NCBI GenBank assembly: GCA_951406725.2
Contig: OX597814.1
Coordinates: 74,710,001 to 74,774,000, forward strand
Direction of reading: 5' to 3'
Length of the DNA stretch: 64,000 nucleotides
Origin: Octopus vulgaris
Taxonomy: Eukaryota
The notes under the pieces were generated by a model. The model searched no databases. It worked only from the letters and a program-made list of their open reading frames with translations, and was not told the DNA's origin. Numbering within the stretch: the first letter of the stretch is position 1; each line of letters begins with the position of its first letter. The translations under genes were made by a program, and so were the position numbers. Of this stretch, positions 7,530 to 7,841 are shown piece after piece.

Positions 7530-7841
7530 ATGGTGGTAGCAGTAAGTGGTTGTAGTAAACGTGTCTCGCTGTTTAAATTTTTACTTTTCTTAACATTTAT
7601 GGAATTTGCAATTTCTATACGTTTCTACGAGATCTGTGAAGTGGGCAGATGTAAGAACGGCGGTACAATGTATTTTCCGGACACTTTCTTGGGGATGTGC
7701 AGGTGCATCTGCCCGTATCCATATATTGGAGCCCTCTGCCAAAATACTAGGATAATTCCTCGAAAAGCACGGTCTAAGAGAAGGAGGGGTTTGGAGAGAC
7801 GAGGTCGAAGATCTCTATTGATAAAAATCTTAACGAATTAG
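7530..7841 (+). CDS. Secreted single EGF-like domain precursor (103 aa) with polybasic C-terminal tail
   Basis: Hydrophobic signal-like segment SLFKFLLFLTFMEFAIS. EGF-like CEVGRCKNGGT..CRCICPYPYIGALC with six Cys. Convertase-type sites RKAR/RSKR/RRR/RGRR. Non-repetitive sequence, promoter upstream, splice donor GTAAGT at 7854. Confidence 0.82.
   Translation: MVVAVSGCSKRVSLFKFLLFLTFMEFAISIRFYEICEVGRCKNGGTMYFPDTFLGMCRCICPYPYIGALCQNTRIIPRKARSKRRRGLERRGRRSLLIKILTN

Follow-up and report, generated by a model that had tools for sequence, protein, structure and literature searches.

A predicted convertase-processed peptide of Octopus vulgaris with a complement-C9-type EGF-like module, and its family in a mollusc and an annelid

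The 64,000-nucleotide (nt) stretch of the Octopus vulgaris genome analysed in this study (the window; assembly GCA_951406725.2, contig OX597814.1, positions 74,710,001 to 74,774,000) carries, at window positions 7530-7841 of the forward strand, an open reading frame (ORF) that translates to a prepropeptide of 103 amino acids (aa), here called P0001. The P0001 gene is transcribed and is not a pseudogene. By sequence comparison its product belongs to a wider conserved family, overlooked by the initial annotation of this locus, that a mollusc and an annelid share. The displaced cysteine (Cys) of this family (CxCxC) is already known from epidermal growth factor (EGF) modules of the complement type; here such a module occurs by itself in a prohormone-like precursor. 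Judging from the precursor sequences, P0001 somewhat probably gives rise to a ligand of the hormone or neuropeptide kind, with a receptor other than the EGF receptor (EGFR). A more specific proposal, which we put forward tentatively, is that these proteins make up a family of neuropeptides or hormones that is missing from the catalogues and dates back at least to the split between annelids and molluscs. In this family, convertases would release a C9-type EGF module, which would act on its own non-EGFR receptor through the PNNIFG loop.

The transcript and its precursor

The stretch is present in 20 public runs from 10 studies, 11 of which were guessed to be RNA and none of which is on record as RNA; the runs aligned to the locus were four of the 11 RNA-like runs, from four studies with tissues not given. 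Each of the four yielded one contig without mismatch, starting at 7425, 7441, 7444 and 7444 and in every case ending at 7853, and the bins covering 7040 to 7411 showed no depth. Contig X17 carries, joined at 7444, what we take to be a template-switch oligo, which identifies the contig as complementary DNA and indicates a cap site. The transcript start lies 86 nt 5' of the ATG, and the 5' untranslated region (UTR) holds no upstream ATG. Past 7853 the contigs extend by 825, 825, 826 and 632 further letters, and an intron probably lies in the 3' UTR, 12 nt beyond the stop codon. The alignment on which this intron is based skipped the repeat from 7862 on, where four loose-end rows were dropped, and only two of the four contigs were flagged as running on in unlike sequence.

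The closest relative of P0001 comes from Octopus bimaculoides; it is listed in UniRef under A0A0L8H966 as 'EGF-like domain-containing protein' and matches at 80% identity with E 8.9e-48. It is followed by an unnamed record that is 68% identical, and the octopod orthologues (P0002, P0003) are intact. P0003 has a hydrophobic window after the module and carries an extension, which looks like read-through of the same splice donor into the intron. The initial annotation had allowed for a locus with neither transcription nor orthologues; RNA-like contigs and intact orthologues were both found. Its suggestion that annotation had missed the gene held for P0001 itself, the exact sequence of which is absent from a collection of 15 billion proteins, but not for O. 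bimaculoides, where the orthologue is annotated in UniRef.

Within the 103 aa translation, the module cysteines C36, C41, C57, C59, C61 and C70 form the pattern C-x4-C-x15-C-x-C-x-C-x8-C, Met47 directly follows NGGT at the usual place of the third Cys, and the motif CRCIC is present, as first described: six cysteines kept at altered spacing. A seventh, C8, falls inside the predicted signal. Hydropathy gives a single hydrophobic window of 19 residues, at residues 12-30 (Kyte-Doolittle (KD) value 1.92), in agreement with the signal-like N-terminus noticed earlier. Beyond the module, hydropathy reaches a maximum of only -0.84; P0001 therefore appears to have no membrane anchor, in keeping with the earlier reading of no transmembrane segment. 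Identity among the three octopod sequences becomes near-continuous at I30, and relative to P0001 the other two are identical at 43/48 and 42/48 positions of the mature region, 23/29 and 14/29 of the signal, and 19/26 and 18/26 of the tail. Residues 78-95 include 11 K/R in 18, with RK, RSKR and RR sites. The mature peptide is predicted to run from I30 to P77 (48 aa), or from I30 to S82 (53 aa) should cleavage take place at the furin-type RSKR site alone, lengths close to the 45-50 aa peptide expected from clustered convertase sites by the initial annotation. The calculated monoisotopic masses of these two forms with three disulfides are 5518.6 Da and 6116.9 Da, respectively.

It is very improbable that the frame arose by chance, that it represents a pseudogene, or that it is a single exon from some larger protein of the EGF-repeat or MACPF kind. 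Such an origin would suit the missing Pfam EGF match of P0001 and its repeat-rich surroundings, but the RNA-like contigs begin just upstream and include the stop codon, the octopod orthologues are intact, and the strict Cys pattern, which none of 100 block shuffles contains, is found a single time when all six frames of the window are read. No longer fused form was found among 8000 candidates, which is weak evidence; with a transcript start 86 nt before the ATG, the module does not lie C-terminal to a MACPF domain.

The search for paralogues covered 2.8 Gb in 227 contigs, and its copy counts are lower bounds. Two other family members used as genome queries both had the P0001 locus as their best match, and no second family locus was found with these two queries. 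Five genome matches tried as paralogues, L012 (E 0.047), L002, L014, L015 and L018, were rejected as canonical EGF exons; L004, L006, L016 and L017 contain no family-type module, while L003, L005, L007-L009 and L013 lay outside the comparison. A 40-residue family query gave zero matches in the same genome, the P0001 locus included, and is uninformative.

A family with a complement-C9-type module

A full scan of 1.84 billion representatives returned 22 matches, of which 15 were short proteins with one module of the P0001 Cys pattern and 7, long or repeated EGF proteins, were dropped. A profile search gave 24 matches; 22 fit the family and the two weakest were canonical multi-EGF proteins. The initial annotation had suggested looking for conservation of C-x4-C-x15-CxCxC-x8-C in relatives, and 47 of the 51 fetched proteins under 320 aa fit its relaxed form C-x2-5-C-x15-CxCxC-x8-C; the four that it misses are two multi-EGF proteins and two cluster members of 119 aa (P0047, P0049). 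With near-duplicate cluster members excluded, 32 non-redundant members were analysed. The shifted third Cys is present in all 32 and is therefore a family trait, rather than the private mutation of a pseudogene that had been considered earlier.

The consensus of the 32 members is C-x-N-G-G-x-L-L-L/M-P-N-N-I-F-G-x-C-R-C-x-C-x3-F/Y-x-G-P-x-C-Q-F, with PNNIFG-x-CRCxC as its core motif. Five cysteines (C2-C6) and three Gly are invariant, the aromatic F/Y and a Q/E after C6 are found in 32/32, and P in 29/32. A dibasic site begins no more than 8 residues past the last Cys in 30/32 members. In 31/32 the module has a hydrophobic stretch ahead of it, P0033 being without its N-terminus, and in 30/32 no 19-residue hydrophobic stretch comes after it, with P0003 and P0010 as the only exceptions. 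The tails differ in length and charge and are mostly neutral or acidic. Besides the octopods, P0011, P0013, P0015 and P0024 have basic tails, and these four also have divergent loops, as does the octopus protein. They may constitute a second subgroup beside the PNNIFG core, and the octopus protein may belong either with the core or with this basic-tailed subgroup.

Because almost all members are unnamed records, the taxonomic range rests on two named points, Octopus and Platynereis. The Platynereis dumerilii member, Pdu_trscr_assembly_1|7214, is itself an unnamed entry of the predicted-secretome file S6 of PMC3890597, where the authors had already stripped its signal peptide. In the ESM Atlas, the best scores (0.84 and 0.83) were to EGF clusters that include arthropod sequences, and clusters of 'hypothetical proteins' of 121-145 aa, mostly from arthropods, gave a partial EGF match (0.82-0.83). 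These clusters are possibly distant relatives and serve as leads only.

The third Cys of a canonical EGF module lies 4-5 residues after the second, and Pfam gave no EGF match for P0001, returning only a chance domain of unknown function (DUF; E 5.8). The comparison with EGF Pfams proposed in the initial annotation thus came back empty for P0001. Across 38 aligned members, PF21195 was the commonest weak match (7/38, best E 0.023; none for P0001), while PF00008 and PF07974 matched 1/38 and 2/38 members below the cut-off (E 0.14 and 0.56). A PF21195 search of the octopus genome did not include the P0001 locus among its 5 matches. P0001 shows the Cys features of EGF, namely six cysteines, a C-terminal C-x-C-x8-C and G-x-x-C. 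Its best sequence matches in the PDB are complement C9 (E 0.019) and C8 (E 0.63), and the family profile also finds C9 first (E 2.3e-5), with the next non-complement match at 0.007. The C9 EGF module, C-x2-C-x12-CxCxC-x8-C, aligns Cys for Cys with the family.

The mature region is likely EGF-like in fold, as judged from an AlphaFold2 model of residues 30-84 built on a 38-row alignment (predicted local distance difference test (pLDDT) 69, predicted template modelling score (pTM) 0.45). Compared with 48,161 chains, the model gave 55 matches at Z >= 2 (best 5.0), those listed being EGF-containing; the VIA rows with judgeable titles were EGF-containing proteins as well. All 42 of the listed Foldseek rows were EGF-containing, with probabilities of up to 1.00 and no E < 0.001. 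Against 6cxo (C9), the root-mean-square deviation is 1.6 A over 40 residues (Z 3.6) at 35% identity, the highest identity among the matches listed. The predicted fold thus supports the earlier notion of a soluble EGF-fold peptide. The accompanying idea of a variant disulfide geometry fares less well, as the C9 EGF module (Pfam PF21195) has the same CxCxC spacing and presumably pairs its cysteines 1-3, 2-4 and 5-6; since this arrangement is shared, P0001 likely keeps the same usual pairing. O-fucosylation takes place in the context C2-x4-S/T-C3, a context that the displaced Cys removes from P0001.

Candidate functions

If P0001 is an endogenous hormone- or neuropeptide-like ligand, the prepropeptide would enter the secretory pathway, its signal would be removed after Ser29, and three disulfides would form (C36-C57, C41-C59 and C61-C70, by alignment with C9). 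Furin or prohormone convertase (PC)-type enzymes would cleave at R78K79 or R81-S-K-R84, giving the 48 or 53 aa peptide, and the basic tail would be discarded or would help in sorting. Conservation is concentrated in the long loop from C2 to C3, pointing to a surface that binds a receptor; this hydrophobic loop (P-N-N-I-F-G in the family, P-D-T-F-L-G in octopus) would face the receptor, and the receptor of the freed peptide would probably not be EGFR. The precursor has two marks of a prohormone: a dibasic site in 30 of the 32 members and a mature region that is the most conserved part. Its N-terminus fits a signal by hydropathy, and the Platynereis member is placed in its authors' predicted secretome (PMC3890597). 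The marks of venom or immune peptides, which are multiple copies, a hypervariable mature region and a conserved signal, were not found. An endogenous signal fits better than a venom or immune role because there is one locus and because the mature part is conserved while the signal peptide varies.

EGFR ligands require Arg directly before the sixth Cys, and they have canonical Cys spacing and a hydrophobic tail residue after C6. Only 7/32 family members have Arg at that place, all three octopods having Leu instead, and the fifth residue past C6 is K/R in 24/32, so that EGFR is an unlikely target. We consequently regard it as unlikely that P0001 activates or blocks EGFR as a soluble factor, in the way of Lymnaea L-EGF or of Smed-egf-6/7, which planarians secrete. 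The combination of a signal with just one EGF module, and the lack of an anchor, would suit such a modulator, and the fold matches include Spitz, HB-EGF and neuregulin (Z 5.0, 4.6 and 3.9), tied with non-ligand EGFs. In addition, the literature describes soluble EGF-type candidates in spiralians (PMC4914847) and L-EGF as secreted (PMC4210270). However, the Cys spacing of P0001 is unlike that of EGFR ligands, whose canonical spacing is visible in the sequences of the PMC4914847 supplement. Family motifs were likewise not found as family sequences in the supplement of this EGFR-ligand survey.

A role as a secreted immune effector, whether as an antimicrobial peptide or, in the form of a free EGF module of the complement type, as a modulator of MACPF proteins, also seems rather unlikely, although P0001 is rich in Cys, has a cationic tail, and has a C9 EGF module as the best solved relative of its family (E 2.3e-5). 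Mussel MgCRP-I peptides combine a conserved pre-pro region with a hypervariable mature region (PMC4558851), the reverse of the conserved mature part and apparently single copy seen here; moreover, the 48 residues of the mature peptide include just 5 K/R and 3 D/E, and tail charge is not kept across the family. The octopod tail is 39% K/R, and tails are similarly basic in P0011, P0013, P0015 and P0024. Together with the common occurrence of EGF modules in matrix proteins, this could indicate a small matrix, adhesive or wiring cue bound to the extracellular matrix through an uncleaved basic tail. We consider such a cue improbable, given that most members have neutral or acidic tails and that the conserved feature is the dibasic site right after the module.

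Several points weigh against an endogenous ligand. The signal of P0001 contains a charged residue, E25, and was judged by hydropathy alone, and the model is of moderate confidence by its pLDDT and pTM, its best Z and its Foldseek E values. From C2 to C6 the octopus protein is only 40-53% identical to the family, whereas the other members average 62% with one another. The octopods also sit on a long branch (4.64) of a tree of 32 domains and 45 columns that is mostly unresolved and has long branches; the octopod role may therefore have shifted. Co-option in octopods for venom or saliva, with the peptide imitating the form of the signal native to the prey, would agree with this long branch, and precedents include the octopus venom peptide mimics (tachykinins) and an ant venom EGF mimic (PMC12962067, PMC13311285). 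We consider such co-option doubtful, however, because octopod conservation is strong, the family also occurs in Platynereis, and the two family queries revealed no second genome copy of the conserved type.

In addition, family motifs are absent from the oyster, scallop, molluscan, Platynereis and other-spiralian ganglion and neuropeptide supplements searched, which could mean that the family is not neuronal. Within their available parts, these comprise the supplements of PMC8398477 (oyster), PMC6425005 (two files in part), PMC5996578 and PMC8557429, along with the curated list S7, precursor figures S8 and mass-spectrometry hits S9 of PMC3890597, where the motif of the Platynereis member was looked for and five further files lay outside the search. 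Of the alternatives offered by the initial annotation (an EGF-family ligand, a neuropeptide or a toxin-like peptide), the precursor layout speaks for the neuropeptide-like one, while an EGFR ligand and a toxin are disfavoured by the hallmarks not kept and by the single locus with its conserved mature part, respectively.

The neuropeptide catalogues of annelids and molluscs are regarded as nearly complete, and a strongly conserved prohormone-like family would, if the proposal is correct, add a signalling system to them. Such a family would be one that evades both the Pfam EGF models and neuropeptide screens based on repeats or amides. Use of a complement-type EGF module alone would also bear on the origin of that module. 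Platynereis, in which receptor deorphanisation is routine, offers a direct test, as a member is already present in a public secretome file. Should the peptide instead prove to be an EGFR modulator or an immune peptide, the family would still need a name and a profile.

Genomic surroundings and known peptide systems

Features of the locus are collected in Table 1. The remainder of the window consists of microsatellite and transposon DNA, and the more prominent elements are included in the table.

Table 1. Features of the P0001 locus and of the surrounding window (window coordinates)
Feature	Position	Strand	Basis or remark
TATA box (TATAAAA); inferred start 30 nt further downstream	7414..7420	+	sequence; contig starts
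Likely transcription start	7441..7444	+	contigs X11, X13 and X17 begin at 7441, 7444 and 7444; X10 begins at 7425
Exon 1: 5' UTR, entire coding sequence, 12 nt of 3' UTR	7444..7853	+	4/4 RNA-like contigs
Coding sequence, prepropeptide P0001	7530..7841	+	translation; orthologues P0002, P0003
Predicted signal peptide, residues 1-29 (cleavage A-I-S|I by eye)	7530..7616	+	hydropathy; identity pattern
Predicted mature peptide I30-P77, 48 aa	7617..7760	+	43/48 and 42/48 identity with two other octopod sequences
EGF-like core C36-C70, complement-C9-type CxCxC spacing	7635..7739	+	sequence and predicted-fold matches
Basic convertase-type site cluster (RK, RSKR, RR), residues 78-95	7761..7814	+	sequence; family dibasic site
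Consensus splice donor GTAAGT, likely 3' UTR intron	7854..7859	+	4/4 contigs cease aligning at 7853
Short repeat just upstream of the promoter	6870-7030		presumably resembles an octopus short interspersed element (SINE); similar sequence near 5050-5130 and 50900-51100
Mariner-like remnant	26450-26956	-	by eye; Pfam no match
Frame of 393 aa	33568-34746	-	resembles the C-terminal part of a Penelope-type element as at 38965-41826; Pfam no match
DDE transposase remnant	36458-36872	-	DDE_3 E 5.3e-6
Uninterrupted frame of 954 aa	38965-41826	-	presumably a Penelope-type retroelement, by eye (reverse transcriptase-like motifs, C-terminal GIY-YIG-like end); Pfam no match at E 0.01
Broken reverse-transcriptase element	43225-44664	-	RVT_1 E 7.6e-15
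Non-long terminal repeat (non-LTR) retrotransposon	56448-61457	+	zinc knuckle, endonuclease, reverse transcriptase and zf-RVT over several frames; second copy of its 3' end near 54400-55240

A search of the open full-text literature gave no match for PNNIFG. No name for the family was found in the available portions of the open texts (also PMC10501145 and PMC9839350), a search blind to sequences broken by spacing or shown as pictures and to subscription journals; an earlier name, for example in subscription papers, is possible. A squid 'egf-like' epidermal marker (PMC9839350) is given by description only in the part available and could not be matched to the family.

Among known systems, the Cys-rich precursors of lophotrochozoans (clionin, CCWamide, CLCCY, CCCGS and prohormone-3) resemble the P0001 family in having a signal, a conserved cysteine-rich peptide and dibasic sites, and several are likewise shared by annelids and molluscs. 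They differ in having other Cys frameworks, none of which is EGF-like in the alignments available from the PMC8398477 supplement; clionin as the identity of the family was rejected on sequence from the same source. EGFR ligands, including Lymnaea L-EGF and planarian Smed-egf-6/7, are alike in being a single secreted EGF-fold module of about 50 aa, L-EGF being compared by description only. They differ in Cys spacing and in a hydrophobic tail residue where the family has a basic cleavage site, and their Arg before C6 is not conserved in the family. The bull ant venom peptide MIITX2-Mg1a is also a small secreted EGF-fold peptide, but it is a venom EGFR agonist according to PMC12962067 and PMC13311285, whereas the P0001 family is without the hallmarks of EGFR ligands and its conservation extends to an annelid. 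The closest resemblance in spacing is to the EGF module of complement C6-C9 (PF21195, EGF_C8A_B_C6), which shares C-x-C-x-C, NGG after C2 and x8 before C6; this resemblance may reflect either shared origin or convergence. That module, however, is one part of a MACPF protein of about 550 aa and has a C2-C3 loop of 12 residues, while the module of P0001 stands alone behind a signal, with a 15-residue loop and convertase sites after it.
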